Source of the DNA: a virus | Lineage: Duplodnaviria; Caudoviricetes | Reading direction: 5' to 3' (one strand) | Length of the DNA: 39,863 bases | IMG/VR virus record: IMGVR_UViG_3300020045_002020 | Location: 1-39,863 of that record | In this document: one piece after another, positions 18,492 to 36,011 of the stretch | How positions within the stretch are numbered: position 1 is the stretch's first letter | How the letters are laid out: every line of letters begins with the position of its first letter | The notes under the pieces: generated by a model | Told to the model about the DNA's origin: nothing | Databases searched by the model: none | The model's input: only the letters and a program-made list of their open reading frames with translations | Made by a program: the position numbers and the translations under genes

Positions 18492-18895
18492 ATATCAAAA
18501 TAGATTCTTGGAACCAGGATGATTGCACGCTCGGCCGTCTTTCATACGGGCCGTTCCACTGCTTCACATTAGAGCTGCCGTGGCTTGGGAATAGTAGAAG
18601 TGTATCGTGCATCCCGTCAGGAAAGTACAAGGCCACAAAGTACGAGTCCCCAAAGCATGGAACTGTGCTACTTCTCCACAATGTACCTAACCGGTCTTAC
18701 ATCGAGATACACGCTGGGAATTATACCCGCCAGATCGAAGGTTGCATTCTTGTGGGGCAGAGCATTACGTACTTGGATAGAGATGATGTACCAGATGTTA
18801 CGAACTCTAAGACCGCATTAGCAGAGCTATTAGCTATCATTCCTGACGAGGTGGCTGTAGAGATAACCAGAACTGCTAGCAAACTCTTGCAGTAA
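18488..18895 (+). CDS. DUF5675-like protein, candidate endolysin
   Basis: TLGRL...CFTLELPW...SCIPSG.Y...IHAGN...EGCILVG motifs; follows the holins. Confidence 0.72.
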   Translation: MNIKIDSWNQDDCTLGRLSYGPFHCFTLELPWLGNSRSVSCIPSGKYKATKYESPKHGTVLLLHNVPNRSYIEIHAGNYTRQIEGCILVGQSITYLDRDDVPDVTNSKTALAELLAIIPDEVAVEITRTASKLLQ

Positions 18896-18914
18896 CCACG
18901 ATTCTAGATAGTAT

Positions 18915-18956
18915 CTAGCCTAGACTTAGGAAACTACCATCGTAAGTCTAGGCTAG
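18915..18956. terminator. Stem-loop between the convergent arms (likely bidirectional terminator)
   Basis: CTAGCCTAGACTTA / TAAGTCTAGGCTAG 14-bp perfect inverted repeat. Confidence 0.7.
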
Positions 18957-18979
18957 CTTAGAACGCGATCCTGAACGTC

Positions 18980-19471
18980 CTACCCAAGATCAGATTGGTT
19001 ATATTTTAACCAAGACCTACCTGAAGACTCCCACAAAGTCTTAGCATCACCATGTGGATACTCTTCCAAAAAAATGACGCGTTCACACCCAGTATTGAGA
19101 AGCAGCTTAGTACAGGTTACGCATGGACTGGCTGTCGCGTATGCCGTGTGGATCTCGTAGACATCCTTGCACTGGAGCAAAGCATTCTGCTCTGCGTGGA
19201 TCGCCTGGCAAGCATCCAGATTCGTACCACTAGGAGAGTTTGCACCTGGACAAGCATTGGGGTAGTAATGCTCCACATTGTTCATGGTATCTGCTTGAAG
19301 CTTACGCTCATTACAATGCGGAAGCCCAGCAGCGACTCCGTTGAACCCAGTGGCGATCACATGACCTCGCTTATTCAGTAGCGCACACCCAACTTTACGA
19401 CGGCAGCATGTAGACCGTTGAGCAGTCAGAAGTGCCAGGCCAATTGCCCATGCGTGTCTTGAAGGTCTCAT
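18980..19471 (-). CDS. dCMP deaminase
   Basis: RSTC.RRKVG, TGFNG, HAEQNAL and SPCVTC zinc motifs; ATGA overlap places the start at 19471. Confidence 0.92.
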   Translation of the reverse strand: MRPSRHAWAIGLALLTAQRSTCCRRKVGCALLNKRGHVIATGFNGVAAGLPHCNERKLQADTMNNVEHYYPNACPGANSPSGTNLDACQAIHAEQNALLQCKDVYEIHTAYATASPCVTCTKLLLNTGCERVIFLEEYPHGDAKTLWESSGRSWLKYNQSDLG

Positions 19472-20283
19472 ACTTTTTCCTCCCACCAACGAAGAATATT
19501 CCCTGGTTTAGTATACCGAAGTTCGCCTAACAGTGGTATTAGATATTGTGGATTCGTCCAGAGGTCGATTGCAGTTTGGACCTGGTTGAATACCTCACCT
19601 GCGTTATCCTGAACACAATAGATGGCACTCTTCCAATGCTCTTCATACAAGTGGCTAGATGCTGCTGTCAAGTACAAAGTCCCAGGTTTAATCTGTTTGG
19701 TAGCGTCATCTATTCCTATATTAAGAAGCCCACAGATTAAATGTGCGATCATACTGAAGTTGAAGACGTCATAAGGAATACCAAGCCATGCATCTGAAGA
19801 TCTCATAAACGTATGATTATTCAGGTGGCCATCTCTAATATTGAAGAACATGGCGATAGTGCATGGAACATCCTTCGTCTCAGGAGGGTTCTCTCTCCAG
19901 AAAGTCATGCCAGCTTGGCGGGTATCCTTATCTTGGTCGAGTTTGCTGACAACATACCGGATCTGGTCCATGAGCTTAGGTCCGTATGCGCCGAAGAAGG
20001 TTTCACCGTTATCAGAGAAGTCTGCAATTCTCTTGTTCCACGGAGCAATATCTTCTACACGATCACTACCGGACAGGATCCAATGAGCTTCAGCTGCCAT
20101 GAACTGATAACTAAGCTTGCGGTCTGGTACGTCAAGCACTGGAGTCCTCATGTTCACCTTGATCGTGTTCTGAGGAATCTCCCTCGTCAACTTACCGCGA
20201 GGAGAGACTAGAGCACCATCTGCTATGATCTCACAGATCATACTAAGCCACACTGTTGAGAACGACACAGGTACGTAGTTCAT
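19468..20283 (-). CDS. Thymidylate synthase-fold enzyme, probable dCMP (hydroxy)methyltransferase
   Basis: GAYG, DTRQA, catalytic PC, MRSSDAWLGIPYD, HLY; Asp at the E. coli ThyA Asn177-equivalent site. Confidence 0.85.
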   Translation of the reverse strand: MNYVPVSFSTVWLSMICEIIADGALVSPRGKLTREIPQNTIKVNMRTPVLDVPDRKLSYQFMAAEAHWILSGSDRVEDIAPWNKRIADFSDNGETFFGAYGPKLMDQIRYVVSKLDQDKDTRQAGMTFWRENPPETKDVPCTIAMFFNIRDGHLNNHTFMRSSDAWLGIPYDVFNFSMIAHLICGLLNIGIDDATKQIKPGTLYLTAASSHLYEEHWKSAIYCVQDNAGEVFNQVQTAIDLWTNPQYLIPLLGELRYTKPGNILRWWEEKV

Positions 20284-20651
20284 TATCTCCCCTCCGTAGA
20301 TGCGATGTAGAAGCCTGCATAGTTGATAATATCCAGAGCAGTGTCAGAGAGACCTTCGAAATTCTCTTTCTTGCCGTCGATCTGTTTTTGAACGAGTGAA
20401 TTGAACCGCTGAGATTTAGTATGGAGCATCTGAGCATAACTCACGGCGCCGAATGGAAAATAGTTAGAGCGGTCGACATCATGGGGATTCACGTCCTTAC
20501 CGTGGTTGTAGTCCTGGCTCTTCTTAATGCATAAAAGAGCCGCTTGCGCCAGAGCACCAGGATGCCCGCCACGATTGGCGAGCTCCTGAAGCAGTTCTTC
20601 ACTTGACGCTTCCAATATTACTTGGCTTCTGTTAGCTTCACTTAGGCTCAT
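20283..20651 (-). CDS. Nucleotide-modification-associated domain 1 (Nmad1/DUF1599)-like protein
   Basis: KKSQDY...K..R...E.LSDTALDIINY motif; start reassigned to 20651. Confidence 0.65.
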   Translation of the reverse strand: MSLSEANRSQVILEASSEELLQELANRGGHPGALAQAALLCIKKSQDYNHGKDVNPHDVDRSNYFPFGAVSYAQMLHTKSQRFNSLVQKQIDGKKENFEGLSDTALDIINYAGFYIASTEGR

Positions 20652-21030
20652 TGTCTTCACCTTCTGGTATACTTGGACTAGTTTCTGCAGACTTAACGGA
20701 TCCATCGGCAATCCTGCCATTATTTACCTCCCACTTCTTCCTCAGAGCATCTGTCAACTCCATGGGAGTCAATCCGTAAGCCAGTGCAGCGTTGGCCCAG
20801 AACTGAAGGATGTCAGTCATCTCAGTGGCAAGAGCGGCACGATTAACCTCTATCTTCTTGGTTTTCCAAGGCTTGAAGTTGATCTCCTGCATCGCTTCAG
20901 TTGTTTCCACGATGACATGAAGAAGGTTCTCTTTCACACCTTCCTCGCCGGCACCAGTAGGATTGCCCATACGCTTCTGCAACTCAAATTGAGTGGTGAG
21001 CAACTCGTTAAGATCTAAAAAGTCAAACAT
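20638..21030 (-). CDS. All-alpha NTP pyrophosphatase (dimeric dUTPase/dCTPase, MazG-like)
   Basis: ETTEAMQEINFKPWK, EMTDILQF, KWEVNNGR motifs. Confidence 0.8.
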   Translation of the reverse strand: MFDFLDLNELLTTQFELQKRMGNPTGAGEEGVKENLLHVIVETTEAMQEINFKPWKTKKIEVNRAALATEMTDILQFWANAALAYGLTPMELTDALRKKWEVNNGRIADGSVKSAETSPSIPEGEDNEPK

Positions 21031-21803
21031 TATTTCTTCCCCTTAAGAGGTTTGCGACACACCCAGAGATTATTGCGAGAGTGGTCTGGGTACAAAGGAC
21101 CAAAGATGTTGCTGATGGCATCGTTGTCAAAGTACTTATCAAGCTGAGACCTGACCAACTTGATGGCAGCACCGAGTTCTTTGTCGTCATCTGGCGCTAC
21201 CTTACCTATATATTTTATATCCATGAACGTGCCATAGCGCTTTTCAATTTCGAAACCTGCCTTCTCAGTGATCTTCTGAAGCTCAGGAACGGTATACTCA
21301 TGGATGTGGTTAGCCGCGTGGCGCTTCCCATCGTAGCATGGCGTAGACATCAACATCACACCACCAGGTTTCAAGGATTCGAATGCGGCCTTCAGTAACT
21401 TAGTGCCACTGTCTACCTTCATGTGCTCAATGACTTCATAATGAACGACAACATCAAACAGGCCATGCTCTTTGATCAACTTCTTGTAGTTATTGGTGAA
21501 GTCAAACTCTCCATAGAACTCCAACCGTTGACTGTTAGACGGTTTTAGTTTGTTCAGATCAACACCAACGTAGCGGTCGACGTGAGCCGAAGCACCACCT
21601 GTAAGGATCTTGCTCAGTGGTTTTTCTTCACCGCATCCAATTTCAAGTACTGAGTCTTTGGCGCTGATGAAACGACGGGCAAAGCTCCAGCGCCAGAAAT
21701 GGGCAGAATAATCTCTGTGAAGAGTCTTGCCATGACCTGACAGCTTCAACTGGGTTGTATCGAACTCTCGCTCGTCTCGTTTTACTTCTCTTGAAATTGG
21801 CAT
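21030..21803 (-). CDS. Class I SAM-dependent methyltransferase
   Basis: VLEIGCG, YVGVDL, FDVVVHYEVIEH, LKPGG...STP. Confidence 0.88.
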   Translation of the reverse strand: MPISREVKRDEREFDTTQLKLSGHGKTLHRDYSAHFWRWSFARRFISAKDSVLEIGCGEEKPLSKILTGGASAHVDRYVGVDLNKLKPSNSQRLEFYGEFDFTNNYKKLIKEHGLFDVVVHYEVIEHMKVDSGTKLLKAAFESLKPGGVMLMSTPCYDGKRHAANHIHEYTVPELQKITEKAGFEIEKRYGTFMDIKYIGKVAPDDDKELGAAIKLVRSQLDKYFDNDAISNIFGPLYPDHSRNNLWVCRKPLKGKK

Positions 21804-21804
21804 A

Positions 21805-21957
21805 TTACTTCTCCACCTTAAGGATTCCGCAGCCTAGACCTTTGCTGCTTAGTTGAATTTGACGACTCGCTTTCTTCGCCTGGTTGATTGAATCATACTT
21901 TTGAGAACCATCTGGTCCTTTTATCACGTATCTCCTACGAAAATATTCAGTTTTCAT
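21805..21957 (-). CDS. Small basic hypothetical protein (50 aa)
   Basis: MKTEYFRRRY...LKVEK; TAATG coupling upstream; fills the gap; below the ORF-track cutoff. Confidence 0.6.
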   Translation of the reverse strand: MKTEYFRRRYVIKGPDGSQKYDSINQAKKASRQIQLSSKGLGCGILKVEK

Positions 21958-22607
21958 TATTTCGCCTCCGGTGGGTTCTCGCCCTTCTTGATTAAATTGT
22001 TACGGTACCACTTAACGTAACTCCGCTTTTTGTCGTCAAGCCAAAATGCTTCCTGAACCTGACTAAAGATCTCATCATCAGTTAACTTACCACCCATGAT
22101 AAGACCTTGAAACATCTGAGCAGCAGAAGAATACTCGCCGTCCTTAGATTTCACCTTCTTGGCTGGTTTCTTAGCAGGAGGTTCTACAGGATTCTTCTTA
22201 ACAACCAGCTTGGTTGGCTTCTCTGTCTTATCAACAGGTACTTTCTCCGTCTTCTTCTTCTTCTCTGTGTCATCAAACAGAGACTTCTTCTTGGATGTTG
22301 CCATTTCACGATCCTCCTTTGAGATAGTAGTGACCTGAGATAAAAAGTCTAACACTTCGTCACTGGCACCGAGAGCCAATGCGTAATTTAAATACAACTG
22401 ACACCCTTTGTCAACAGGATAGTCAGGCATAACACTGTAACGGTGTTCAAATGAGCCAACTGAGGTTTCAGATACCTCAAACCCGGTATCCACGCACATT
22501 GGGATGTACTTTACCACTCCTTCATTCTTGTATACCATAAGACAGGTACGACCTTGGTGGTCGCGACATACAGCGAAATCACTTCCGCTTTCCTTTCTTT
22601 TTGACAT
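21957..22607 (-). CDS. Hypothetical protein with Lys-rich linker and C-terminal domain paralogous to 24020-24547
   Basis: GAGG RBS at the 22607 start; KKRSYVKWYRNNLIKKGENPP. Confidence 0.75.
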   Translation of the reverse strand: MSKRKESGSDFAVCRDHQGRTCLMVYKNEGVVKYIPMCVDTGFEVSETSVGSFEHRYSVMPDYPVDKGCQLYLNYALALGASDEVLDFLSQVTTISKEDREMATSKKKSLFDDTEKKKKTEKVPVDKTEKPTKLVVKKNPVEPPAKKPAKKVKSKDGEYSSAAQMFQGLIMGGKLTDDEIFSQVQEAFWLDDKKRSYVKWYRNNLIKKGENPPEAK

Positions 22608-22845
22608 GTTTAACCTCATTATCTAGTTCAAGAGCGATCATTGATAATTCTAGAAGTCCTTGGATCCAGACTCTAGATTCTTCGTACTGGAAAGGTCCTG
22701 CAGTTTGCCAGTGAAACCTTGCACCTTTATTGTCGCTAGTTACTAATCCACGACGACAGCCATCAATATAGAGTTGGAATCTCTTCTCATTGTCAACGCT
22801 CTCATCACGAATGTCTATTGTGTCTACATCACTTTGTGCCATCAC
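22579..22845 (-). CDS. Hypothetical protein
   Basis: ORF in a tightly packed operon with AAGG RBS. Confidence 0.6.
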   Translation of the reverse strand: MMAQSDVDTIDIRDESVDNEKRFQLYIDGCRRGLVTSDNKGARFHWQTAGPFQYEESRVWIQGLLELSMIALELDNEVKHVKKKGKRK

Positions 22846-23023
22846 ACCTTCCTTTATATGGAGGCCAGCCTGGGCGATCTTCAGGTGGCAGATGTTTAAA
22901 CTCTTCCCATTTAGCAGTCATCTTACAGTAGAGTTCATAGTCTACCTTGTCTGTAATCTCAGTATCTGAGAATACCCACAGTAGCCCGATGACGCACAGC
23001 GAAACTATTATAGATTTTGTCAT
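22829..23023 (-). CDS. Small membrane-anchored hypothetical protein
   Basis: N-terminal hydrophobic segment; C-terminal YCKM...GWPPYKGRC. Confidence 0.65.
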   Translation of the reverse strand: MTKSIIVSLCVIGLLWVFSDTEITDKVDYELYCKMTAKWEEFKHLPPEDRPGWPPYKGRCDGTK

Positions 23024-23265
23024 GTGTCACGTCTTCCATAAGGAAAGGTCAAATAGTCTGGGTCAAGCTGTGCTAGTCTACGTTCAAAACTCTCATCCAT
23101 TTCTTTGATTCTCTTAATCTACCAGTCTTTGCTGATGCCCATATCTTTCCAAGCCTTTACGCTTTGATCAGTTATTGGTGTTCCTGTGCTTATCACGCTG
23201 CACAAGTGCGTAATATCTTTCTCTTCACGCATAACAAGGCAATCAGCATCATTCGCTTCACTCAT
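23020..23265 (-). pseudogene. 81-codon ORF interrupted by an in-frame TAG at 23119-23121
   Basis: AAAGGAG RBS and ATG inside the attC-like site; the frame continues past the TAG to a TGA that overlaps the next ATG (ATGA). Confidence 0.55.
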
Positions 23266-23306
23266 TCGGAACTCCTTTAAGTCGTCCTGTTATTGCGACG
23301 TTACGA
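23229..23306 (+). mobile_element. attC-like recombination site A1
   Basis: GCATAAC...GCAATcAGCA / TGTTATTGC...GTTACGA; arms pair with one extra C. Confidence 0.75.
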
Positions 23307-23510
23307 GTCGCCATCAAACCACACGGTTGTCATAGAGGCAGGCGGGATAAATACACCAACACCATGAATCACCTCGCACCTGTAATCCGATTTAAAGTCA
23401 CAACTCAAGAATTTCACGCCATTCCATACCCAAGGCACTACGCCTAGAAAAATTACAACCACAACCACAATCATCAACTCAACCAATGTAAAACCTTTTT
23501 GCTTCGTCAT
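23301..23510 (-). CDS. Small prepilin-type (class III signal peptide) protein in a cassette
   Basis: MTKQKG/FTLVELMIVVVVV; GAGG RBS; stop codon inside the attC core. Confidence 0.8.
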   Translation of the reverse strand: MTKQKGFTLVELMIVVVVVIFLGVVPWVWNGVKFLSCDFKSDYRCEVIHGVGVFIPPASMTTVWFDGDS

Positions 23511-23539
23511 AATAATAATATCCTCTTAATTAAAATTAC

Positions 23540-23606
23540 ACGTAACAATGCGCTCATGCAGTTTCACTCGGACGCGCTTCATGAGCCGCATAGCTTTTGG
23601 TTACAA
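23540..23606 (+). mobile_element. attC-like recombination site A2
   Basis: ACGTAAC...GCTcATGC / GCATAGC...GTTACAA. Confidence 0.72.
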
Positions 23607-23798
23607 CTCTTTCTCAAGTTCTTTGATTATTGCTTTTATACAGTTCTTACAGGGAGCAATTGAGCCACCAACAGATAAAGCAACGTGTTGTGCATCTTGG
23701 AATGCCCAAGATGCATTGAATTTTCTACCGCACCAGACTTCAGGAATTCCCAGCTGCTTCCCATCTTTATGCGTATATTTGATAACGTGTCTGCTCAT
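23601..23798 (-). CDS. Cassette-borne hypothetical protein (WCG...CxxC, possible metal binding)
   Basis: 65 aa; stop codon inside the attC core; preceded by a G11 run. Confidence 0.7.
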   Translation of the reverse strand: MSRHVIKYTHKDGKQLGIPEVWCGRKFNASWAFQDAQHVALSVGGSIAPCKNCIKAIIKELEKEL

Positions 23799-23802
23799 TT
23801 AG

Positions 23803-23813
23803 CCCCCCCCCCC
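23803..23813. repeat. C11/G11 homopolymer at the RBS position of 23601-23798
   Basis: 11 consecutive C on the + strand, 4 nt from the ATG. Confidence 0.85.
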
Positions 23814-23820
23814 ATTGAGT

Positions 23821-23850
23821 TACAACAAGTAAATTAAGTCGGACAACCCA
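23821..23850 (+). mobile_element. Truncated attC-like left half A3
   Basis: TACAACAAGTAAATTAAGTCGGAC resembles an attC left arm; flank GAGTTACAAC is 8/10 complementary to GTTACAACTC at 23600. Confidence 0.45.
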
Positions 23851-23941
23851 CCACTACGTCTGAAAACCATTCCTTATTTCCATTTTGCGCTCTGCTGCCT
23901 TTATAACTCTAATCTGCAAATCTGTCATAACTACTACGTCA

Positions 23942-24009
23942 CACTAACAAGGCAAATCACGCGGAACTCATTCGGGCGGCGAAGCCGCCCGCATAGCTTG
24001 GCGTTAATG
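23942..24009 (+). mobile_element. attC-like recombination site A4
   Basis: CACTAACAAGGCAAATCACGCGG...GGGCGGCGAAGCCGCCC...GCATAGCTTGGCGTTAATG. Confidence 0.65.
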
Positions 24010-24019
24010 TGCGTGTCAT

Positions 24020-24547
24020 CTAGTCCTCAAGCACATGAAGAACATTGGGGTCTTGCCGCGCTAGATCAAAGGCCGGAGGGAGTTGACCCTTACGACGTAG
24101 CTCGCAGCGATACCAAGCTGGGTAGCTCTTCTTCTCAGGTCCGAAACGTTCCTCTCCATACTCAGCTTGAAGAGCTGCGAAGATGGTAGGATTGTCTGCG
24201 CCCTCTAAGATCATATCACGACATAGACTGGAGATGGTGACACGCGGAGCTTTCTTAGCAGGCTTCTTCTCAGCTTTAGGTTTCTTCTCAGCTTTAGGCT
24301 TCTTCTCAGTTTTAGGCTTCTTCTCAGCTTTAGGCTTCTTCTCAGTTTTAGGCTTCTTCTCAACTTTAGGCTTCTTAAGATCAAGAAGATAATTCTCTGC
24401 CATTGCAATGTTACATGCGAATCTCCCATCTCCCATCTTATCGATGAAGAGACCGTAATCGCGTGAATTAATGCCCATATTACGAAGCAGCGCAGTGGCG
24501 GAGTCACGACGGGCGTAGAATTTAGTAGCATCATCTTGTTTAGTCAT
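24020..24547 (-). CDS. Basic protein with KKPK(A/T/V)E repeats, putative DNA-binding
   Basis: First gene after a strong promoter; histone H1-like linker. Confidence 0.8.
   Translation of the reverse strand: MTKQDDATKFYARRDSATALLRNMGINSRDYGLFIDKMGDGRFACNIAMAENYLLDLKKPKVEKKPKTEKKPKAEKKPKTEKKPKAEKKPKAEKKPAKKAPRVTISSLCRDMILEGADNPTIFAALQAEYGEERFGPEKKSYPAWYRCELRRKGQLPPAFDLARQDPNVLHVLED
24261..24376. repeat. 18-bp tandem repeat, six units plus a partial unit
   Basis: GGCTTCTTCTCAGCTTTA variants encoding KKPKxE. Confidence 0.9.
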
Positions 24548-24592
24548 GTTTTAACCCTCAGCAAGGTTTTGTTAATTTGTGATCGTATAGAG

Positions 24593-24621
24593 ATTATAGC
24601 GCGAGATCACTGAGTTGTAAA
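24593..24621 (-). promoter_or_regulatory. Sigma70-like promoter
   Basis: TTTACA-N17-TATAAT on the - strand. Confidence 0.8.
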
Positions 24622-24635
24622 CACCTAATTACACT

Positions 24636-26099
24636 TTATTTTATCTTTTTAAGTGCTTCAAACAGAGCATTCTGGCCCTTACGCTTCACCTTCAGAGCTG
24701 CCAGAACGACCTCATCTATGGTACCTTCAGCTATTATATGGTGTAAGAACACGCGCTTCCTAGTGTTACCCTGCCTAAGGACTCGGCGGTTGAACTGGTC
24801 ATATAGTTCATAATCCCACGTTAGTGAGTGCCACGCCACGTGGTTGCAAGCACCTTGGAGGTTCAAACCGTGACCAGCAGACTGAGGATGGGCTAGTAAT
24901 AAGGGAAGCTCACCGTTATTCCATCTGATTTCGATCTCTTTTGATCGTTTAACAGACACTCCGCCACCTATGTACGGAACATCCTTACCAAACCGCTTCT
25001 GAAGCCTGCCTAGATCATGCTTGAAGTCGTAGGCCACTAGAAGTGGAGAACCTTGCAGCTCTTCTAGTAGATCATCCAACACGTCTATCTTCGCCTCGTG
25101 GAGATCTACCCAGTCTCTATTGGTCGTAGGCAGCTTAATCAGTGCCTGGACCTCAGGATCAATATAGATTCCACCGTTCGCCACCTGTCTACATTTCATA
25201 CTAGCCGTGGCCGCAGTCTTGGCTGTTACTACACCTTCGTCTAGTTTCGCTACCAAGTCTTCTTCCAACTCATTGTAGATCTTCATGACCTTATCAGGCA
25301 GTCTGACACTGATATTGTTCTCCACCACCTCTGGCATATCCAACAGATCATCTCCCATCCGCAAGGCGAGTGGGGCAAGGCGCTCATAAATCTCCTGGTC
25401 AGCACCTTCACGGATCGTCCAGCTGAACCCGTCGTAGCCTTGGTCGAAGTACTTCATTCTGTAATGGCTGATGTAAGGTCCTAACGTCCTGCCTTGATCA
25501 AGCATGTAACACTGGCCAAACAGATCCAGCAGACCATTAGAGGCAGGAGATCCTGTCAACCCCCAACGCCTGGAGAACGAGTTCAGAACCAACTTCATAG
25601 CCTTGAAGCGATTCGTCTGAGGATGTTTGAACTTAGATAGTTCATCGATGACTAGTGTATCAAAACCAAACTTATTCCATCGGCGCATATCTACTGTCAC
25701 CTTGGTCTTACCAGACTTGGTCTTAGCCTTCTGAACGTCGAGAAGCCAGTCCAAACCCTCAGGGTTAATCACGTAGATGTCTGCCTCTTCCTCAAGCAGT
25801 TCGTTCTTCTTTGGTCCATGGAGCACGACTGTTTTCAAGCCTTTGAAGTCTATCCACTTCTCAATCTCTGCTGGCCATACAGAATGGCAAACACGTAGAG
25901 GAGCCACCAATAAAACCTTAGATAGAATCTTCTTCGCCTTCAGGAGTTTAATAGCGGCAAGAGTTATTGATGTTTTACCCAGCCCGGGATCTAAGAACAG
26001 TGCAGCGGCGCCGTGCTGCAGCAAGAATTTTACGGCTTTCTTTTGGTAGGCGTGTGGCTTCCAAGGCTTCGATGACTGCTTGAAAAGCGTCGATTGCAT
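24636..26099 (-). CDS. SNF2-family helicase
   Basis: DPGLGKT, IDELS, GLTGSP, HPQSAGHGLNLQ, QFNRRVLRQG. Confidence 0.92.
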   Translation of the reverse strand: MQSTLFKQSSKPWKPHAYQKKAVKFLLQHGAAALFLDPGLGKTSITLAAIKLLKAKKILSKVLLVAPLRVCHSVWPAEIEKWIDFKGLKTVVLHGPKKNELLEEEADIYVINPEGLDWLLDVQKAKTKSGKTKVTVDMRRWNKFGFDTLVIDELSKFKHPQTNRFKAMKLVLNSFSRRWGLTGSPASNGLLDLFGQCYMLDQGRTLGPYISHYRMKYFDQGYDGFSWTIREGADQEIYERLAPLALRMGDDLLDMPEVVENNISVRLPDKVMKIYNELEEDLVAKLDEGVVTAKTAATASMKCRQVANGGIYIDPEVQALIKLPTTNRDWVDLHEAKIDVLDDLLEELQGSPLLVAYDFKHDLGRLQKRFGKDVPYIGGGVSVKRSKEIEIRWNNGELPLLLAHPQSAGHGLNLQGACNHVAWHSLTWDYELYDQFNRRVLRQGNTRKRVFLHHIIAEGTIDEVVLAALKVKRKGQNALFEALKKIK

Positions 26100-26343
26100 T
26101 GTCGTGTACCTCTACTTGGTATCCAAGATCTCGTAGTTGTTGGTGGATTTTATCTTGTTTAGGTCTAGGATCTTCTCCAGGACGTTTAAATTCTATAAGG
26201 AGAGGACGACCTCCAGGCATCCAGAATATTCGATCTGGATACCCTGTGTCTCCTAGTATTTTGAGCTTAGATCCCTCTATACCTAGGTTCTTCCAAACCA
26301 GGTTGCAGGCATCTAGCTCAATATCATTTTCAAGTTTGTTCAC
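25975..26343 (-). CDS. VRR-NUC domain nuclease
   Basis: GYPDRIF...IEFKRPG..PRPKQ motif, upstream of the helicase. Confidence 0.85.
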   Translation of the reverse strand: MNKLENDIELDACNLVWKNLGIEGSKLKILGDTGYPDRIFWMPGGRPLLIEFKRPGEDPRPKQDKIHQQLRDLGYQVEVHDNAIDAFQAVIEALEATRLPKESRKILAAARRRCTVLRSRAG

Positions 26344-26966
26344 TTAAGTAGTTGCATCGCATGGAGAGCTTGAGATTTAGCATCGTCCAACGCATTGTGA
26401 TAAGTACCTTCGCGTTTGAGGGACGGACCTTCGATCAAATTCTTCAGTGTGCGGTAGCAACGACCATTCCACGGAGACCATGGTACTTTACGACCAAGTG
26501 CATTATAGCAACACGCGAGAATCGCATTGTCGAAATCTGCACCATTACCCCAGATTTTTACCTGCTTCAATCCAACCTGATATAGGTAGTCGTTGAACTC
26601 GTTCAAAGATCTGGCCAATGGGATGGACTTATCTTTATCACCAGCCTCAATTAATACTTGGCGAGCTTCTTCAGATTGTTTCTCCCACCAATCCATGGTA
26701 TCCTCGTTTATATGAAGTCCTTGGCTTATACAATCATCAGTATTGACAACGATATAGAACTCAGGTCCAAGCTCTCCGGTCTGTGCGTTGAACGCCACGG
26801 CGCCAATGGAGAGAACCACACATCCAGGAACGGTACCCAGAGTTTCTAGATCTACCATAACATCTGTGAAGATGGTTTGTTGCGTACGTTGAGGTTTCAT
26901 TACAATTTTCCTTTTGGTGATTAAATAGATGAGTAAGAAGCAGAAGGCTAACCCTAACCACTCCAT
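26340..26966 (-). CDS. DEDDh 3'-5' exonuclease (start may be 26900)
   Basis: VMVDLETLG, WGNGADFD, HNALDDA. Confidence 0.85.
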   Translation of the reverse strand: MEWLGLAFCFLLIYLITKRKIVMKPQRTQQTIFTDVMVDLETLGTVPGCVVLSIGAVAFNAQTGELGPEFYIVVNTDDCISQGLHINEDTMDWWEKQSEEARQVLIEAGDKDKSIPLARSLNEFNDYLYQVGLKQVKIWGNGADFDNAILACCYNALGRKVPWSPWNGRCYRTLKNLIEGPSLKREGTYHNALDDAKSQALHAMQLLK

Positions 26967-27712
26967 CAGAATTTACACTGGCCACCGCCAGCCATCTTGT
27001 TAGATTTCCTGAAGAAACACCAATGGCACTTGTTATTAGGGCGAGGTGCAAATGACTTATCCTTCATCATGGGCTGCACTCTCTTGTTCCAAAGCTTCTT
27101 GAGCTTAGGAATATCCTTTCGATTGAAGGTCAACTCTTTCTCATCGTCGGAACCTTCTTCTGGGTAGATAACACCGTGGTCCAGATAGACAAGGCGAGGC
27201 TTCACTACCTCAATGTGTTCATGAAGCAGCAGTGCCGCCAGAGCATAGAGTCCAAGTTGCTCGATGTACTCCTCATTCATCTCAGGACGGAACTTACCAG
27301 TCTTCCAGTCATTGACTATGAGGACGTCATCTGTACCTTCCTCATGCTCAGCGCAGTCCAACTTGATACGAACCCAACAACCAATCCAGTCGTTCCAAGA
27401 GGTTTCATCCCAATCCTTGGTGAAGGCCCATGTGTCTTCCACGACCATACCGTTGATCGCCTTCTTGTATTGCTTACGTAGCCGTTGAAATAGAGCTTTA
27501 AACTCCTTGAGTTCATTAGGTAGGCTCGTAATAGTTCCCTTGATATAAGCTTCCGCCTTATCATGGATCTTAGCACCACGATCCATTGCTGGATTAGGTG
27601 GCTCCTTGATTTTATCAATGAATTGAAGTTTCGCCTTCAGTGGGCATTGCTTATAACAGCTATACCGGCTGAAGGACCAAGCGGTTATTTGTTGGGGTTT
27701 TGATTTACTCAC
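26966..27712 (-). CDS. PD-(D/E)XK exonuclease, Cas4/RecB-like
   Basis: SFSR...QCP, RG..IH, KLD, DWKTGK, QL.LY, C-terminal CxxC...C. Confidence 0.85.
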   Translation of the reverse strand: MSKSKPQQITAWSFSRYSCYKQCPLKAKLQFIDKIKEPPNPAMDRGAKIHDKAEAYIKGTITSLPNELKEFKALFQRLRKQYKKAINGMVVEDTWAFTKDWDETSWNDWIGCWVRIKLDCAEHEEGTDDVLIVNDWKTGKFRPEMNEEYIEQLGLYALAALLLHEHIEVVKPRLVYLDHGVIYPEEGSDDEKELTFNRKDIPKLKKLWNKRVQPMMKDKSFAPRPNNKCHWCFFRKSNKMAGGGQCKF

Positions 27713-29634
27713 AATACTTCTCCTTTCTTGTCGTAGTCGATTAATTCATCCCAGTTAGTATCTGAGATAGCACCTTCTGAGAGCATTGGAACGTCAAACT
27801 CAATTGACTCCAACGCGTTTCTCATCACCTCCATCTCAGACTTTAAAATCTTCTTCGGGATGGAGGCCGTAACCTGATCGTGCACGTTCAGTACGATCTT
27901 CGAGTCAGGGTGCTTTGCTGCGTGGTACCTGATAATGGCTTCCTTAGTACAATCAGCGGCAGAACCTTGTATTAATACATTCACCATCTTGTAGTCAAAA
28001 GTTCTTAGTCTACCCTTAACTATCTCCGGTTCTTCACAGTAGTATTCGCGACCTCCCCATGTTCTAATGGGGATATTATTAACAGCCCTCATCTTCATGT
28101 CCTTGTACATATCCTTCAAACCAGGATACAGAGCTAGGATCGCTTTCTTCAGAGCTTCTGTCTCTTCAACTGACATGCCGTTCCGCTCTGCTAATGCGCC
28201 GACACCCATTCCGTAGATGATACCGAGATTGGTGTTCTTCACTGGTTTACGCTCGTAGTACTTGCCCATCTTAGCGAGCTCATCCTTGGCGTAGTCATGG
28301 AAGTCAATCCAAGGATCTTCAAGGTACTTATCAAGCAAGCTACCACCGTCGAAGTGTCCTAGTATCCTAGGCTCCTGCTGGGAGTAATCTCGATCGATGA
28401 AGATCTCACCTTTAAATGGAACTACGTACCCACGCACCTTGGGTAGGGCAGGTAGATCTTTGAACGGGCATGTTGGCAGGCCAGCTTTCAGTTTTCTGTC
28501 AGTCGTATCGTGCTTGAAGCACGGCTTGAACTCGTTAGGAATATTCTGGAAATTGGGGGTGGACGACAGACGACCAGTACGAGTTCCTGCATTGTCTGCT
28601 CCCTTAGGAGCTCTAACCTGATTCCAAGTGGTGAATATCAGCCCATTAGACTGCTCTGCAACCTTGAGCCATGGCACCATGAATGTACTGAGACAGGTTT
28701 TCAACTGAGATCTGTATTTAAGCACCGCGAGCAACTGCTTATCAGTAATAGCCACGAGCAAAGCATCTTTGTTTGTTTGATATTTACCAGTAGGAGTGAG
28801 TGGTGCTAGTTCTTCATCAACAAGCCCAGCCTCAAGCATCGCGTTGAATAGTTGCTGCCCACTGTTCAGGTTGATGTCAGCTGAGCACTTGAGCTTCTTG
28901 ATGACCCAATCATCTAGCTTATCCTGCCACTCACTGTACATCTTAACATCTGAGCGGAGTCTATCCAAATCGACTGGTAAACCCTGACGCTCCATCTCAA
29001 GGAGGATCGGCATAAGGCGGCGCTCGCGGTCATAGGCAACGAGCATATCACGGTCTTTGGTCTTCTTCCAAAGCATATTAAACAGCGCATGAGTTCTGTC
29101 AGTATCACCGTTGCCATACTTAGCGGCAAGCTTCCCAGGAGCAAATGCAAGGTAGCGGCCGAAGTAGTGTTCAGACGACTTAGACTTACTGATCTTAACG
29201 CCAGGGATAGGTTGATTCTCTATGAGCCATTCACCGATCATGTCCTGCTCTTCTGCTTCCCACCCAAGCAACCGCTCTGATGATGGTTTCAGACTGAGTT
29301 CTTTCTGGTGTGGATCGTCTAAGAAAAGCAAAAACATGGTGTCATGTATTTTATCCCAGGATGGGACTTCTAAACCAAAGTGAGCTTCAGCAACGTCTAC
29401 ATCGAACTTGCCATTCTGAAACAGAATACCATCTTTACACTGATAAGCTTTCTCTAAGGCAGTAGCCGCTTCGGACCAGCAGCAGTTGTTCTCAGTAGGA
29501 TGACCGAACGCGTAGTACTTAGACTTCTTCTCTCCGTACTTGATAGAGACACCAACAGGTAGCGGCGGATATTTAGGTCGTCCCTCTATTCCGAAGGTTT
29601 CGAAATCGACCGTGACTGGATTAGGTTGTTTCAT
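27709..29634 (-). CDS. polA: DNA polymerase, family A
   Basis: DFET exonuclease motif, TGRLSS.PNFQNIP, DYSQQEPR, K..NLGIIYG, IQGSAAD, VHDQ. Confidence 0.95.
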   Translation of the reverse strand: MKQPNPVTVDFETFGIEGRPKYPPLPVGVSIKYGEKKSKYYAFGHPTENNCCWSEAATALEKAYQCKDGILFQNGKFDVDVAEAHFGLEVPSWDKIHDTMFLLFLDDPHQKELSLKPSSERLLGWEAEEQDMIGEWLIENQPIPGVKISKSKSSEHYFGRYLAFAPGKLAAKYGNGDTDRTHALFNMLWKKTKDRDMLVAYDRERRLMPILLEMERQGLPVDLDRLRSDVKMYSEWQDKLDDWVIKKLKCSADINLNSGQQLFNAMLEAGLVDEELAPLTPTGKYQTNKDALLVAITDKQLLAVLKYRSQLKTCLSTFMVPWLKVAEQSNGLIFTTWNQVRAPKGADNAGTRTGRLSSTPNFQNIPNEFKPCFKHDTTDRKLKAGLPTCPFKDLPALPKVRGYVVPFKGEIFIDRDYSQQEPRILGHFDGGSLLDKYLEDPWIDFHDYAKDELAKMGKYYERKPVKNTNLGIIYGMGVGALAERNGMSVEETEALKKAILALYPGLKDMYKDMKMRAVNNIPIRTWGGREYYCEEPEIVKGRLRTFDYKMVNVLIQGSAADCTKEAIIRYHAAKHPDSKIVLNVHDQVTASIPKKILKSEMEVMRNALESIEFDVPMLSEGAISDTNWDELIDYDKKGEVL

Positions 29635-29812
29635 TAGTAAATTCCGGCATTAGTATTGGCAATTCGTCTTCTTCCACTTCGATCTTCTTACGACACCTTT
29701 GGCAGATTGCGTAATACCCAAGATGCAGTAACCCTAGGCTGGCGCGTTGAACGCAGTCGTATTGCGAGTGTGTTAAGATGTGACCTTTGAAGAAGCAGAC
29801 TAGGCGCTTCAT
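29621..29812 (-). CDS. Hypothetical protein (C...GH / CxRC)
   Basis: Small ORF in the operon. Confidence 0.6.
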   Translation of the reverse strand: MKRLVCFFKGHILTHSQYDCVQRASLGLLHLGYYAICQRCRKKIEVEEDELPILMPEFTNETT

Positions 29813-29827
29813 ACATCCGAGTCCTGA

Positions 29828-30040
29828 TCAGTGACTGCATCTTCCTAACTCCCTACGTTCTCGGTCGGCACGTGCTTTGTTCAGGCGGCTGTGAATCCGC
29901 TTCATAAACTGCTGGCGTCTACGGTTGCTTCGTTCTTCGTCTAGCAACTTGTGACAGGTGGCTTCATCGGCATCTCGTATGAAGTCATTCAACTTGATCC
30001 AAGTTTCAAGGGCTGGGTGATTAACTTCTTTTTTAAACAT
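29828..30040 (-). CDS. Hypothetical protein
   Basis: GAGGT RBS before the ATG at 30040. Confidence 0.7.
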   Translation of the reverse strand: MFKKEVNHPALETWIKLNDFIRDADEATCHKLLDEERSNRRRQQFMKRIHSRLNKARADRERRELGRCSH

Positions 30041-30117
30041 ATTTACCTCGTATATTAGGCTGGTAATACTCGCGCCATTTAACACCTACCGTTGCGACTG
30101 GTGCACATAAATCTTAG

Positions 30118-30270
30118 TTAGGCATCATGTGATTGCCTTTCGTGATCCTCGATTGATTTGGCTATGTACTCGCCAAGCCCAGTTGCTGCAAACAATGCTT
30201 CTAGCAATTCTTGCTTCGCCATTCGCTGCGCTTCTTTCTGCAAGATTTGCCATTTTTCATCGTCGTTCAT
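30118..30270 (-). CDS. Cassette-borne hypothetical protein (50 aa)
   Basis: GGAGG RBS; stop codon inside the GTTAGGC core at 30117-30123. Confidence 0.65.
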   Translation of the reverse strand: MNDDEKWQILQKEAQRMAKQELLEALFAATGLGEYIAKSIEDHERQSHDA

Positions 30271-30282
30271 TTCATCCTCCGT

Positions 30283-30337
30283 GCCTAACATTTGCGTCAA
30301 CGCGGACGCTCCGCTTTGCTACGCGCCGGTGTTATGC
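30283..30337 (+). mobile_element. attC-like site B1 (right arm partly deleted)
   Basis: GCCTAACATTTGCGTCAACGCGGACGC...GCGCCGGT-GTTATGC; GCCTAAC is the exact complement of GTTAGGC at 30117. Confidence 0.72.
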
Positions 30338-30519
30338 CCCGTAGAGTCAGCTGCCACGGTACGGTACATCGGCATATAGTTGTCGCACTCGACGCCGCGT
30401 ACTGAAATCGTGTAATCGAACATTGCCACGCTTTGCCAGTCGCTTGCTTTTGCCTGCACTCGATAGCAGTGCCCTGCGTTCGGGCAAAGTGTCTGGGAAC
30501 ACATTGTAATGTCAGCCAT
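30319..30519 (-). CDS. Cassette-borne Cys-rich hypothetical protein
   Basis: MADITMC....CP....CYR; AAGGA RBS. Confidence 0.7.
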   Translation of the reverse strand: MADITMCSQTLCPNAGHCYRVQAKASDWQSVAMFDYTISVRGVECDNYMPMYRTVAADSTGHNTGA

Positions 30520-30534
30520 ATCAATCCTTCCGTT

Positions 30535-30590
30535 GCATAACTGTGCCTTCAACTCGGACGCCTTAGGCGTCGGTTAAGGCGGCGTTAGCC
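30535..30590 (+). mobile_element. attC-like site B2 (56 bp, canonical looking)
   Basis: GCATAAC TGT GCCTTcAACtCGgACGCC TTA GGCGTCGGTTAAGGC GGC GTTAGCC. Confidence 0.85.
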
Positions 30591-30904
30591 GTCACAAGTC
30601 GGTAGTCGTAGTCATCAACGTACCCTGTTTCGTAGTCATGGCTTTCGTTGCACACCACCACTTCGTAAATTCCGTCTTCGACCTCGCTTAAATTCAAGAT
30701 GCGCAGCAAAACCTCTTCCGCACCTATCGCGTTGGCGTCTTCGGAAAGGATGTTGAATCCTTCGCACTGGCGGCGCAAGAACGTCAGGCTTTTCTTCGTG
30801 TACAGCCCACGCTTGTCTGCCCATACCGTCGTCTTCACCCGCACCGTGCAACGGCTAACATTTACGCCAACCGGACCTTGCGCCATGAGCGTTTCGAGGT
30901 TCAT
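30563..30904 (-). CDS. Cassette-borne hypothetical protein
   Basis: GGAGG RBS and ATG in the loop of attC B3; stop codon in the loop of attC B2. Confidence 0.75.
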   Translation of the reverse strand: MNLETLMAQGPVGVNVSRCTVRVKTTVWADKRGLYTKKSLTFLRRQCEGFNILSEDANAIGAEEVLLRILNLSEVEDGIYEVVVCNESHDYETGYVDDYDYRLVTANAALTDA

Positions 30905-30949
30905 TGTTCCTCCTGTGCTGGCGCAAGGCCGGTTACGTTATCATTAGTA
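30853..30949 (+). mobile_element. attC-like site B3
   Basis: GGCTAAC...ACGCcAACCGGaCCTTGCGCCA / TGGCGCAAGGCCGGTTACGT...ATTAGTA; two extra bases (C, A); right core degenerate (ATT for GTT). Confidence 0.8.
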
Positions 30950-31780
30950 CTTACGGCCCTTACGATCCGGGGTTTTCTTCGCTGCTGGTTTATTGGCGGC
31001 GCGACTCTTCTTCGGAGCAGGTTCTTCCTCACCTAACTGATATGGGAAGTCGATAGTGCTCTGAGCTTCAGCGCGGCGATCCATGATGGCAGCCATGATC
31101 TCATCAGGCACCTTCTGAATCGGTTCAAATGTTACCTTGAACTGAGTCTTGGCATCCGGCACTACAGATACGCGCGTGATGATACCAAACGGAGGACGCT
31201 TGAGAGCACCAGCAACCTGCTTGACAAAGTTCGCGTAACCCTTAACAGAGGTCACAGGAAGTTTCATGAAACCCATAGTGGTAGATGAGTAGTGATCAAG
31301 CTCTCCGAAGAGTTCAAGATTACCATTACGGTCGAAGTTACCGGCAGGAATCATGGCGAGGCGGCGGGTGTTGCGACAAGCCTTACCCTTACCAGTATTG
31401 GCAGAACCCCACTCGTTATTCTCACAGTTCTTGCACAGGTCTTCAATCTGATTCTGACCGACTTCGCGCACAATGATATGAGGTTCAAGATCTGCTTCTT
31501 CAGAAGCGAGCGCGAAACACGTAGGACTTTGAGGTACGTCTGGGTCATAACGACCTTCATAGAAGACATTCTCAAAGATCGTATCTAAGATGATGACCGC
31601 CATCTCGTTGTTCGGTACGGGTGAATCCTGCCAGCTGAGCACTCCGCCCTTAACGGAGAAGAACTGACCTCCTCCAGTAGAGGATTCAGCTACAGCCGCT
31701 TGTTCAGCTGCTTTTGCTAGTTCTTCATCCCAAGTTGCAACTGCTTTAGACTTGGAAGTTGTTGCTTTATTTGTAGCCAT
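30944..31780 (-). CDS. Putative ssDNA-binding/annealing protein
   Basis: CKNC..N.WGS...GKGKACRN.RRL motif; position in the replication module; GGAG RBS at the 31780 start. Confidence 0.6.
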   Translation of the reverse strand: MATNKATTSKSKAVATWDEELAKAAEQAAVAESSTGGGQFFSVKGGVLSWQDSPVPNNEMAVIILDTIFENVFYEGRYDPDVPQSPTCFALASEEADLEPHIIVREVGQNQIEDLCKNCENNEWGSANTGKGKACRNTRRLAMIPAGNFDRNGNLELFGELDHYSSTTMGFMKLPVTSVKGYANFVKQVAGALKRPPFGIITRVSVVPDAKTQFKVTFEPIQKVPDEIMAAIMDRRAEAQSTIDFPYQLGEEEPAPKKSRAANKPAAKKTPDRKGRKY

Positions 31781-31902
31781 GGTAATAATCTCCGGAAGAT
31801 TATAGTTACTAGTCACTAGTTAATGCCCTGCAGGATTGGCGTCACCCACGCTCGGAGCCAAGCGATCAATCTCAGACGGAGTCTGCTTCTCCTCGATTAG
31901 TG

Positions 31903-32339: not shown

Positions 32340-32368
32340 ATTCTAACACGTCTAAACCTGGTTGTAAA
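32340..32368 (-). promoter_or_regulatory. Sigma70-like promoter
   Basis: TTTACA-N17-TAGAAT with extended -10 TG. Confidence 0.8.
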
Positions 32369-32377
32369 CACTTAGTT

Positions 32378-32587
32378 TTAGTTTAACGTAGCTCCTTGGG
32401 TCTGTATGTCGAGGACGGCAGAATCTATAACATGGCGAAGGTCTTCTCCCATCATAATCTTAGCAGCTCCGTCTACCCAGTATTGGCAAACCCATGTCCG
32501 TTCCCAACCGTCTGTGTTCAAGGAATCATAGGTCGCAATGCAAAGCCCGTAGTTTCCCAAGGCGTTCAACCGCTCGGAGTCAGTCAT
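32378..32587 (-). CDS. Hypothetical protein
   Basis: MTDSERLNAL...LRHVID. Confidence 0.7.
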   Translation of the reverse strand: MTDSERLNALGNYGLCIATYDSLNTDGWERTWVCQYWVDGAAKIMMGEDLRHVIDSAVLDIQTQGATLN

Positions 32588-33856: not shown

Positions 33857-34131
33857 TTGTTTTGTCCTCTACCATTACACGCTTCGCATCGCATTTTTAC
33901 AGTATTGAACCCATGCCCTCGGGCCACAGATCCAGATCCGTTACAATTCCCGCACTTTTTAGGCTTCTTGGAATACTCCAAAGCTTCCATGTACGCAGTG
34001 CGGAGCTCGTTAAACTTATCAGCATCTCCTCCCTTATCAGGATGGTTAAGATTAGCTAGTTCTCTCCAACGAATCTTCACCTCCTCAGGAGATGCCGTGG
34101 GCAGCAAGCCCAACAAGGTGAACGCCTTCAT
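33853..34131 (-). CDS. Mini J-domain protein with DnaJ-type zinc finger
   Basis: HPDKGG motif; CGNCNGSG and CEACNGRG. Confidence 0.85.
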   Translation of the reverse strand: MKAFTLLGLLPTASPEEVKIRWRELANLNHPDKGGDADKFNELRTAYMEALEYSKKPKKCGNCNGSGSVARGHGFNTVKMRCEACNGRGQNK

Positions 34132-34811
34132 CCAAGCACCTCCTTCAGTGAAGGGTAGTGTTCAAGCAGAAGATCTCGGCAATCTTCAGCAATTTCGCGA
34201 TGCTCTTTCTGAGTACCGCTACCCGTACGCAACTGAATGTAGTGAATCCAACTACGAACCGTGCCGCTCATATACAGACGAGACTCGGTCAAGCCTTCAG
34301 GAAGGACAGATCGAGCAACCTCCTTGGCGATACCCGCGTTCAAGGCTTGGTTGTACTGGTCGTGAGCATAGGTAGCCACTGACTGTTGAGCAGACGACCA
34401 CCAAAGAGTTAGTTCGTCATCATCTATCTCAATACTACTTTGCCTGTTCTTTACATCTTGGAGTCGTGCTTCACGAATCACCGGAGCCGCTTGCACCTCA
34501 GCATACCGCTGGCTGAACTCTTGGAAGCTGAACGAGCGGTGGCGTAGGATTTGGCGGGCAATATCACGAGTCGTTACGATCTCGATCACAGCATGAGCCA
34601 TCTCGAACGGAGACCAGTGTTGATTCTCCACCATGTACTCAAGCAGCTTATCAGACGTGCCGTGGTTCAGCTGATTTCTCGGATTAGAGACTCGTGCACA
34701 GTAAGCAATGAGTGCTTGAGCTGGGTTCCAGACATCTCCGCCTTCAGGACCATCAACAACGCCGACACCTAGCAACGGTTGTGTCAATGCAATTAAACGG
34801 ACAGCCATCAT
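34128..34811 (-). CDS. thyX: FAD-dependent thymidylate synthase
   Basis: HWSPFE, RQILRHRSFSFQEFSQRY, EVARSVLP, TQKEHR. Confidence 0.95.
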   Translation of the reverse strand: MMAVRLIALTQPLLGVGVVDGPEGGDVWNPAQALIAYCARVSNPRNQLNHGTSDKLLEYMVENQHWSPFEMAHAVIEIVTTRDIARQILRHRSFSFQEFSQRYAEVQAAPVIREARLQDVKNRQSSIEIDDDELTLWWSSAQQSVATYAHDQYNQALNAGIAKEVARSVLPEGLTESRLYMSGTVRSWIHYIQLRTGSGTQKEHREIAEDCRDLLLEHYPSLKEVLG

Positions 34812-35932: not shown

Positions 35933-35961
35933 ATCCTAAACCGTTAGAAGGCAGTTGTAAA
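35933..35961 (-). promoter_or_regulatory. Sigma70-like promoter
   Basis: TTTACA-N17-TAGGAT. Confidence 0.75.
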
Positions 35962-36011
35962 CATGTGGTTTTAACTTATTTTTACCTACGTTTGTATAAA
36001 ATCATCTCTCC

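Follow-up and report, generated by a model that had tools for sequence, protein, structure and literature searches.

The virus genome IMGVR_UViG_3300020045_002020 (Duplodnaviria; Caudoviricetes), analyzed here over its whole length of 39,863 nucleotides (nt) and referred to below as the window, carries two arrays of integron-type gene cassettes. Array 1 occupies positions 23020–24003 and array 2 positions 30118–30937, and all of their ends lie on G|TT cores. A canonical cassette holds its open reading frame (ORF) on the top strand of, and upstream of, its attC recombination site. None of the six cassettes in the window has this layout, and all six ORFs are found on the attC bottom strand, which is the minus strand of the record, in accordance with the original prediction that every enclosed ORF is antisense to attC. 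Considering all of the evidence given below, we regard it as probable that these are integron-type cassettes with bottom-strand genes, which were inserted by an integron integrase (IntI) acting in trans and came from a phage-specific pool kept by temperate phages that possess IntI and an attI-like site. Both arrays fit the definition of clusters of attC sites lacking an integrase (CALINs; at least two neighboring attC sites and no integrase), a designation made by definition and not by IntegronFinder.

Extrahelical bases near the left L box (L'') are main determinants of bottom-strand choice in attC recombination (PMC5027507). Arm alignments revealed an extra C in the L'' box of the plus strand at 23229–23306, 23540–23606, 30535–30590 and 30853–30943, and the site at 30535–30590 has three extra bases (C, T and G) on the left R''–L'' arm. 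At 30283–30337, left-arm extra bases were assigned to the plus strand through the match to intact phage copies. Because the extrahelical bases sit on the left arm, the plus strand can be designated as the attC top strand, as the original prediction had it, and the mRNA-like minus strand is predicted to be the bottom strand that folds and recombines. The same attC motif is the top strand in bacterial arrays beside real IntI genes. Folding of the sites, which had been proposed as a way to find the recombinogenic strand, was uninformative as a strand test (the two strands differ by at most 1.1 kcal/mol), and the assignment is supported by the arm bases and the bacterial references.

The R'' (RYYYAAC) and R' (GTTRRRY) cores, 5–6-nt spacers and paired L boxes are present at 23540–23606 and 30535–30590 and partly present at 23229–23306, and the right arm is deleted at 30283–30337 and 30853–30943. 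Apart from 23540–23606 and 30535–30590, the attC sites of the window are decayed and were assigned by homology. In array 2, R'' is the exact complement of the core at the start of its own cassette (7 of 7 bases in all three cassettes), an agreement with a chance of about 0.001 when cores are drawn from the viral core pool. The corresponding matches in array 1 are 5, 6 and 5 of 7. Exact complementarity of this kind is the mark of units that once existed as circles. With this complementarity and with core-bounded movement, cassettes B and C of array 2 being found in other contexts, the units behave as integron gene cassettes. The attC sites were not among the top families of a repeat finder.

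All six cassette ORFs have purine-rich motifs resembling a ribosome-binding site (RBS). The longest plus-strand ORFs that start in the six cassette bodies have 35–82 amino acids (aa), and none of them has an RBS. Four of the cassette ORFs end on a core, with TGA at 23020 and TAA at 23301, 23601 and 30118, and each of these three TAA codons corresponds to the TTA in a G|TT core, as had been noticed earlier. The other two, with starts at 30519 and 30904, cross the core, which they read as an in-frame AAC (Asn), and have their stops within the hairpin that follows (30319 and 30563). The earlier claim that attC supplies the stop codons is thus valid for four ORFs and not for the two that read through. 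The predicted placement of translation signals inside the hairpins was confirmed by the sequence for both ORFs concerned, in which AAAGGAG with ATG 23265 and AGGAGG with ATG 30904 lie within attC hairpins.

Array 2 starts at the left junction G|TTAGGC (30117–30123, plus strand), a secondary site that is not attI-like by profile (score −1.6, against 8–39 for the training sites; rank 11 of 1465). The 30118 end had been read as an attC hairpin, but 30117 is the array-2 left junction and no hairpin end, and the candidate at 30077–30122 was ruled out as attC or attI by the structure scan and the profile score. The cassette A ORF (30118–30270, minus; 50 aa) has its RBS just inside R'' and its stop on the core, and its protein has no homologue except itself. 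Compared with intact copies in loci L031, L089 and L130, attC A (30283–30337, plus) has a 9-nt deletion of L' and spacer and is predicted to be inactive. The cassette B ORF (30319–30519, minus; 66 aa) belongs to a mobile family and crosses the core as Asn; attC B (30535–30590, plus) is intact. The cassette C ORF (30563–30904, minus; 113 aa) has its RBS and start in the loop of its own attC, an Asn codon at the core and its stop in the loop of attC B. An independent copy in L323, with 84% identity over 113 aa, conserves the 30904 start and the arm-coded N-terminus, in line with the prediction that arm sequence becomes N-terminal peptide, and attC-free homologues (40–62% in L277–L280) have unrelated N-termini. 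Because the intact L323 attC reveals a 6-nt spacer deletion in attC C (30853–30943, plus), the crossover and right junction of array 2 were placed at G30937|TT. A crossover at 30943 was rejected, as it requires four substitutions in six bases compared with one deletion. The right end therefore lies 6 nt behind the 30944 stop of the gene at 30944–31816, where the TAAC is also present in L013, and the TAA at 30938–30940 is an in-frame third stop. The 30944 stop, once placed on the core, is most likely 6 nt outside it, and the description of this gene as SSB-like was not borne out (PHROG matches of unknown function and no Pfam match).

The left junction of array 1 is G23019|TCATGT (23019–23025, plus strand), where the core TTA has changed to TCA, giving a TGA stop on the minus strand and a new ATG at 23023. 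Its target is a resident small membrane-type gene (22829–23023, minus), homologues of which directly follow the 24020 gene in relatives. When 23020–24003 is excised, an open 68-codon ORF with an RBS is obtained, which starts from ATG 24019 just behind the stop of the 24020 gene and aligns end to end with the same-position gene of three relatives. Based on this reconstruction, array 1 appears to have split the resident gene at codon 6, in an out-of-frame TAAC. The present start of the resident gene, 23023, overlaps the TGA of cassette 1, and this junction would restart the gene. A G|TTATTG near 23172 was considered as the left junction and dropped, since 23019 restores the resident ORF.

Within array 1, the cassette 1 ORF (23020–23265, minus) has its RBS AAAGGAG and ATG inside attC 1 and its TGA on the junction. 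It contains an in-frame TAG at 23119, probably a nonsense change, beyond which the frame runs on to the junction TGA, and it may be a pseudogene; no homologue of its protein was found except itself. Its attC 1 (23229–23306, plus) has a decayed inner stem besides the extra C in L''. The cassette 2 ORF (23301–23510, minus; 69 aa) stops on the core and has a prepilin-type N-terminal methylation motif (PF07963, over the cut-off); as a guess, its protein could interfere with host type IV pili. The following attC 2 (23540–23606, plus) passes the strict structural scan. The cassette 3 ORF (23601–23798, minus; 65 aa) matches PHROG 4090 and stops on the core. A run of about eleven C (poly-G on the minus strand) is located at 23805–23814, at the RBS position of cassette 3, and is possibly a slippage switch or an assembly artefact. 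From reading of the sequence, a degenerate attC 3 (23820–23910, plus) with a recognizable left arm and a lost right arm, followed by a remnant cassette body of about 30 nt, probably precedes the chimeric-looking attC 4 (23942–24009, plus), which holds the right junction of the array at G24003|TT.

Relatives of the phage were found through three genes, and the rows of gaps obtained from them include duplicate contigs. The gap at the array-1 site measures 21–221 nt in 33 of 35 rows, and that at the array-2 site at most 219 nt in 49 of 53 rows. The longer gaps in the remaining rows hold no attC, and an attC scan of 76 relative loci gave only one doubtful site. Both rebuilt targets are G|TT sites that are empty in the relatives, as in attG-type insertion, and both fit the GWT rule for off-site insertion, IntI being able to insert cassettes at short GWT sites outside integrons (10.1101/2022.09.11.507474). 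The earlier claim of insertion at TAAC stop codons applies to array 2, just behind a stop, but not to array 1, inside a resident gene. What appears to be constant is an AA|C crossover on the mRNA-like strand, which is read either as a stop (TAA|C) or as Asn.

Core-bounded mobility is seen for cassettes B and C. The left arm of attC B was found in 60 metagenome stretches with 40 distinct cassette bodies, 34 of which have a bottom-strand ORF; 15 of these read through as Asn, 12 stop on the core, four stop before it and three have no core found (five of the other six bodies are too short, and canonical fits were not scored symmetrically). Among 85 homologues of the cassette B protein, 54 have an xN sequence at the junction, and the six residues after it form 52 different tails. 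The same cassette B occurs elsewhere in L329, and viral contigs unrelated to one another share identical inner attC sequences attached to different cassette bodies. In addition, homologues of cassettes 2, 3 and C are found in other phages without an adjoining attC (L505 for cassette 2; L286 and L287, with 65% identity, for cassette 3). These three cargo genes point to the creation of cassettes in phages, probably through the fusion of an ordinary phage gene ending at AAC with a reused attC, since reused attC sites with different bodies together with attC-free homologues are the expected trace of such grafting. L329:600–1650 holds an inverted array that resembles those of phages and comprises about seven attC sites. 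One of them is nearly identical to the class 1 attC aadA7, with the same orientation as the window attC sites and an inverted ORF. This suggests an exchange of attC sites with mobile integrons.

A survey with a motif derived from the left arm of a window attC covered 126 loci in viral contigs (21 of 64 parts) and 135 loci in prokaryote genomes (3 of 64 parts). Strand calls by the longest ORF were too noisy in GC-rich DNA (27 viral sites top, 17 bottom and 22 ambiguous) and were replaced by core-bounded ORF fits checked with PHROGs. The 113 viral sites comprise 34 inverted, 3 canonical, 8 fitting both and 28 neither, with no right arm found at 40, and the 161 bacterial sites comprise 3 inverted, 41 canonical, 5 both and 44 neither, with no right arm found at 68. 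Counted by contig, the ratio of inverted to canonical is 31:2 among 68 viral and 3:17 among 53 bacterial contigs, the rest being unclassified (Fisher p = 5e-9), so that ORF orientation around phage attC sites, for which the original prediction had called for a survey, is not random. PHROG matches were obtained for 20 of 42 bottom-strand and 0 of 23 top-strand candidate ORFs. A bottom-strand RBS and start just inside R'' are present at 34 of 71 viral sites and 1 of 92 bacterial sites, and inside the attC at 7 of 65 and 0 of 92, respectively. All 19 core read-throughs in the surveyed viral attC sites use the Asn frame, as do 15 of 15 in the attC B left-arm stretches and 33 of 34 in a further set. 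A continuous polyprotein through all attC sites was unsupported, as only 13 of 65 viral attC sites are stop-free in the Asn frame. Reference arrays adjoining an IntI over the cut-off (G001 and G002) are canonical with the same motif. The phage-specific inverted grammar proposed earlier thus survives as a phage-biased layout in which attC contains or adjoins the translation signals, but it is not universal.

Temperate-phage contigs with their own IntI and reversed arrays were also found. Locus L096 (G038:C1:6654–7601) encodes a full-length IntI, which matches TIGR02249 with 465.7 bits over positions 1–315 (cut-off 265); scoring by hidden Markov model was made for this locus, and the others were identified by tblastn. 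The L096 intI has a RusA-like gene on one side and an inverted array on the other and is co-oriented with both. The IntI profile search hit 316 stretches, the best 80 of which were retained. Sufficient upstream DNA was available for 58 of these, including 55 distinct loci (the viral loci include L374 and L377–L455). At these 55 loci, 115 of 120 upstream attC sites have the standard geometry relative to intI. With an RBS required, those 115 comprise 68 inverted, 1 canonical, 2 both and 44 unclassified sites (28 loci to 1), and without this requirement the counts are 62 inverted, 9 canonical and 20 both. A first bacterial control with the structure scanner gave only six sites and was rerun with wider spacers on 21 bacterial IntI loci, which gave 24 canonical, 2 inverted and 48 unclassified sites with an RBS required (12 loci to 1), and 46 canonical versus 3 inverted sites without it. 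Because the genes face intI in the related phage loci (68 to 1), a cassette promoter (Pc) could not express them. A conserved junction motif, putatively attI-like, separates the first cassette from intI in 28 of the 30 loci that were examined.

The surroundings of these loci are those of phages, with phage genes downstream of intI in all 17 loci sampled and a second (phage) integrase in 12. Of the cassette ORFs, 25 of 67 match PHROGs, including 5 DNA methyltransferases, 4 PAPS-reductase-like proteins, 2 Mom-like proteins and 1 Lar-like protein. A 76-row IntI tree places 38 viral IntIs, which hold 26 of the 28 inverted loci, on one side of a branch with 100/99 support. A second, separate branch comprises 13 viral IntI-like proteins, for which no cassettes upstream could be classified (L408, L416, L419, L424, L427, L429, L430, L432–L436 and L443). 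A Propionivibrio metagenome-assembled genome (G037; L364, L365 and L366) combines a canonical integron with two prophage-like regions that have inverted arrays, the cargo of which includes methyltransferase, Mom-like, PAPS-reductase-like and HNH genes; one of these regions has an attC only two bases different from attC B. This genome points to betaproteobacterial hosts.

On these grounds the following mechanism can be proposed. In the IntI phages, intI would lie near the end of an early operon with the attC sites in standard orientation relative to it, and transcription would enter the array at its far end and proceed to intI instead of starting at Pc, so that expression would be limited to bottom-strand genes. 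Each attC would then precede its own gene and could carry its RBS and start. The AA|C crossover at the 3' end of the gene would provide either a stop (TAA|C) or an Asn with a tail borrowed from the neighbor, and because it falls at the gene end in one of these two ways, swapping would rarely break a gene. Such cassettes could enter a lytic phage at antisense-strand G|TT sites if its host has an IntI of any kind. In the window, secondary G|TT sites would have been used. One of them follows a stop codon, and the other falls in codon 6 of a resident gene, which, once split, would have been restarted by the TAA-to-TGA change. The cassettes were likely frozen when most window attC sites subsequently suffered right-arm deletions; on this reading the window phage is a recipient whose cassettes are mostly frozen. 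We consider the chances about even that, more broadly, temperate phages have domesticated their own IntI branch as a mirror-image integron, which sustains a market where phages trade accessory and counter-defence genes with one another (DNA methyltransferases, Mom-like, Lar-like and PAPS-reductase-like) with stop-or-Asn junctions and cassettes made on reused attC sites, feeding lytic phages like this one.

Several observations weigh against the reading of these arrays as phage-pool cassettes inserted in trans. Neither intI nor attI, which a complete integron possesses, nor Pc was found in the window, and the complete record gave no tyrosine recombinase (no PF00589 match at E ≤ 1) and no intI in the PHROG scan, so that we infer the source of the enzyme. 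None of the six cassettes occurs in the 80 viral IntI loci, and with up to three mismatches the left arms of only two of the eight window sites match one viral IntI locus each. Just 23540 and 30535 among the window sites pass the strict structure-only scan, and folding picks neither strand. The survey used a single motif that covers one attC family, left about half of its sites unclassified, and yielded no IntI over the cut-off in 32 viral records chosen from it, many of them fragments and L096 not among them. A single phage IntI served as the seed of the IntI search, the 9 canonical and 20 both-fitting sites appear once the RBS requirement is lifted, and the tree has a midpoint root, a branch chosen after the first tree and only 21 bacterial IntIs. 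In our re-check of published phage CALINs, the TJE1 array is canonical, and the attC in MW202573 (L290:2281–2340) and attC1 of P12002L (L291, near 30005–30075) are inverted relative to the annotated genes. Inversion in phage attC arrays is therefore common, not universal.

The polarity might instead be a product of filtering, with a host IntI dropping bacterial cassettes at random GWT sites and selection keeping the inverted or harmless ones, without any phage pool. Published attG insertion (10.1101/2022.09.11.507474), the presence of IntI in 87 of the 201 genomes that were sampled from the candidate host order, attC motifs common to bacterial integrons and the lack of IntI in the window would all agree with this. 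However, a canonical cassette at a sense-strand GTT would be equally well expressed, so that filtering predicts no bias; moreover, the cargo is phage-like with attC-free phage homologues, identical attC sites recur among phages with different cargo, and phages carry their own IntI with inverted arrays. We judge this explanation unlikely. Slightly less credit goes to the transfer of real inverted cassettes as blocks from a temperate phage by homologous or illegitimate recombination, with no IntI action on this genome, although phage mosaicism is well in keeping with it, such routes were suggested in PMC9892861, and the multi-cassette blocks, decayed sites and missing IntI would be expected. Against it, the two arrays each begin and end at core positions, removal of array 1 at these positions restores the resident ORF in frame, and no donor flank is left on either side.

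Two further explanations seem very improbable. The polarity could have been mis-assigned, the minus strand being the attC top strand of canonical cassettes with unusual bulges, or the arrays being products of top-strand recombination. The same motif, however, accompanies co-oriented ORFs in bacterial IntI arrays, and the phage IntI loci keep the standard attC orientation (115 of 120) while their ORFs are flipped; top-strand recombination would turn gene and attC together and leave their relative polarity unchanged. Equally doubtful is the view that the hairpins serve as terminators or regulatory stems or have arisen as chance repeats. In its favor, the majority of window sites show decay, and the strict scan gave two or three probable false positives elsewhere in the window, with shuffled windows averaging 0.23–0.77 hits. 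Nevertheless, the complementarity of R'' and start cores and the exact junction-bounded mobility of cassettes B and C argue for recombination sites, and none of the attC sites is among the terminator-like matches or coincides with the one, chance Rfam match in the window.

Compared with class 1 mobile and sedentary chromosomal integrons as described in PMC5027507, PMC5371416 and PMC8946536, the arrays are alike in attC anatomy, the G|TT crossover, complementary R'' and R' cores and one gene per cassette, and the related phages are also alike in their full-length IntI and standard attC-to-intI geometry. They differ in having bottom-strand genes, an attC that stands ahead of its own gene and can supply RBS and start, a stop or Asn at the crossover, and predicted expression from a phage promoter towards intI, not from Pc, besides the lack of intI, attI and Pc in the window itself. 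Phage attC clusters are already published: PMC9892861 reports 17 phage CALINs, and IntI1 recombined five of six tested sites, the bottom strand better. Those CALINs resemble the present arrays as integrase-less attC clusters in virulent phages with methyltransferase cargo, but the available text does not tabulate ORF polarity relative to attC, and the complete phage integrons it describes are captured host or class 1 integrons, not the phage IntI branch. Insertion by attC × attG and the resulting single attC sites lacking an integrase (SALINs; 10.1101/2022.09.11.507474) are similar in the use of GWT sites and in later hairpin decay, which can domesticate the insert; as far as the available text goes, they are found in bacterial chromosomes without strand bias, whereas here the target is a phage and the polarity is biased. 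No paper on inverted phage cassette polarity or a phage IntI branch was found in a search that extended neither to subscription journals nor to figures. What appears to be new is the polarity reversal and the phage IntI branch, and the earlier claim of an undescribed phage gene-shuffling system is narrowed to these two.

Chromosomal integrons of Vibrio contain a minority of inverted, self-promoted cassettes of toxin–antitoxin type, with the ORF antisense to attC. In the present arrays, inversion is the rule, the genes are embedded in operons and the translation signals are tied to attC. T4-type phages reportedly shuffle small early genes in hairpin-bounded promoter early stem-loop (PeSL) cassettes, which are said not to be based on attC or IntI. 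Integrons have been regarded as tools of bacteria and, of late, as reservoirs of anti-phage genes, and to our knowledge the genesis of their cassettes is unsolved. If the proposal is correct, a phage-run reversed integron would allow phages to shuffle accessory genes site-specifically and would contribute to explaining mosaic early regions. The combination of one attC sequence with many phage genes, of which attC-free versions also exist, gives concrete before-and-after pairs, and a true mirror-image integron would make cassette genesis observable and testable. The frame rule predicts many phage proteins with attC-coded ends, which is relevant to annotation and to attC-based tools for gene fusion.

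The record is one complete viral genome with direct terminal repeats, that of a podovirus of 39.7 kb. In the PHROG scan, the plus strand has P22-like head and portal genes, and the minus strand has genes for primase, ligase, PolA, exonucleases, helicase and nucleotide metabolism. Both inserts are separate and lie within the minus-strand replication region, and the helicase-to-PolA block between them is ordinary. Upstream of the array-1 operon there is a sigma-70-like promoter match (24593–24621, minus; 11 of 12), and upstream of the array-2 operon one with an extended −10 (32340–32368, minus; 10 of 12), both being consensus matches only. An intergenic motif of about 30 nt occurs three times (24613–24642, 32360–32389 and 35953–35982), each time ahead of a minus-strand operon, and two of the copies coincide with these promoter matches. 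The protein encoded at 24020–24547 has a Lys-Pro-rich linker encoded by an 18-nt tandem repeat (24242–24403) and shares a C-terminal domain with the 21957–22619 protein. Two thymidylate-synthase-like genes and genes for dCMP deaminase, pyrophosphohydrolase and methyltransferase at 19468–21803 and 34128–34811 (minus) suggest modified bases in the phage DNA. A long perfect hairpin at 18890–19004, between the convergent late and early gene blocks, is likely a bidirectional terminator.

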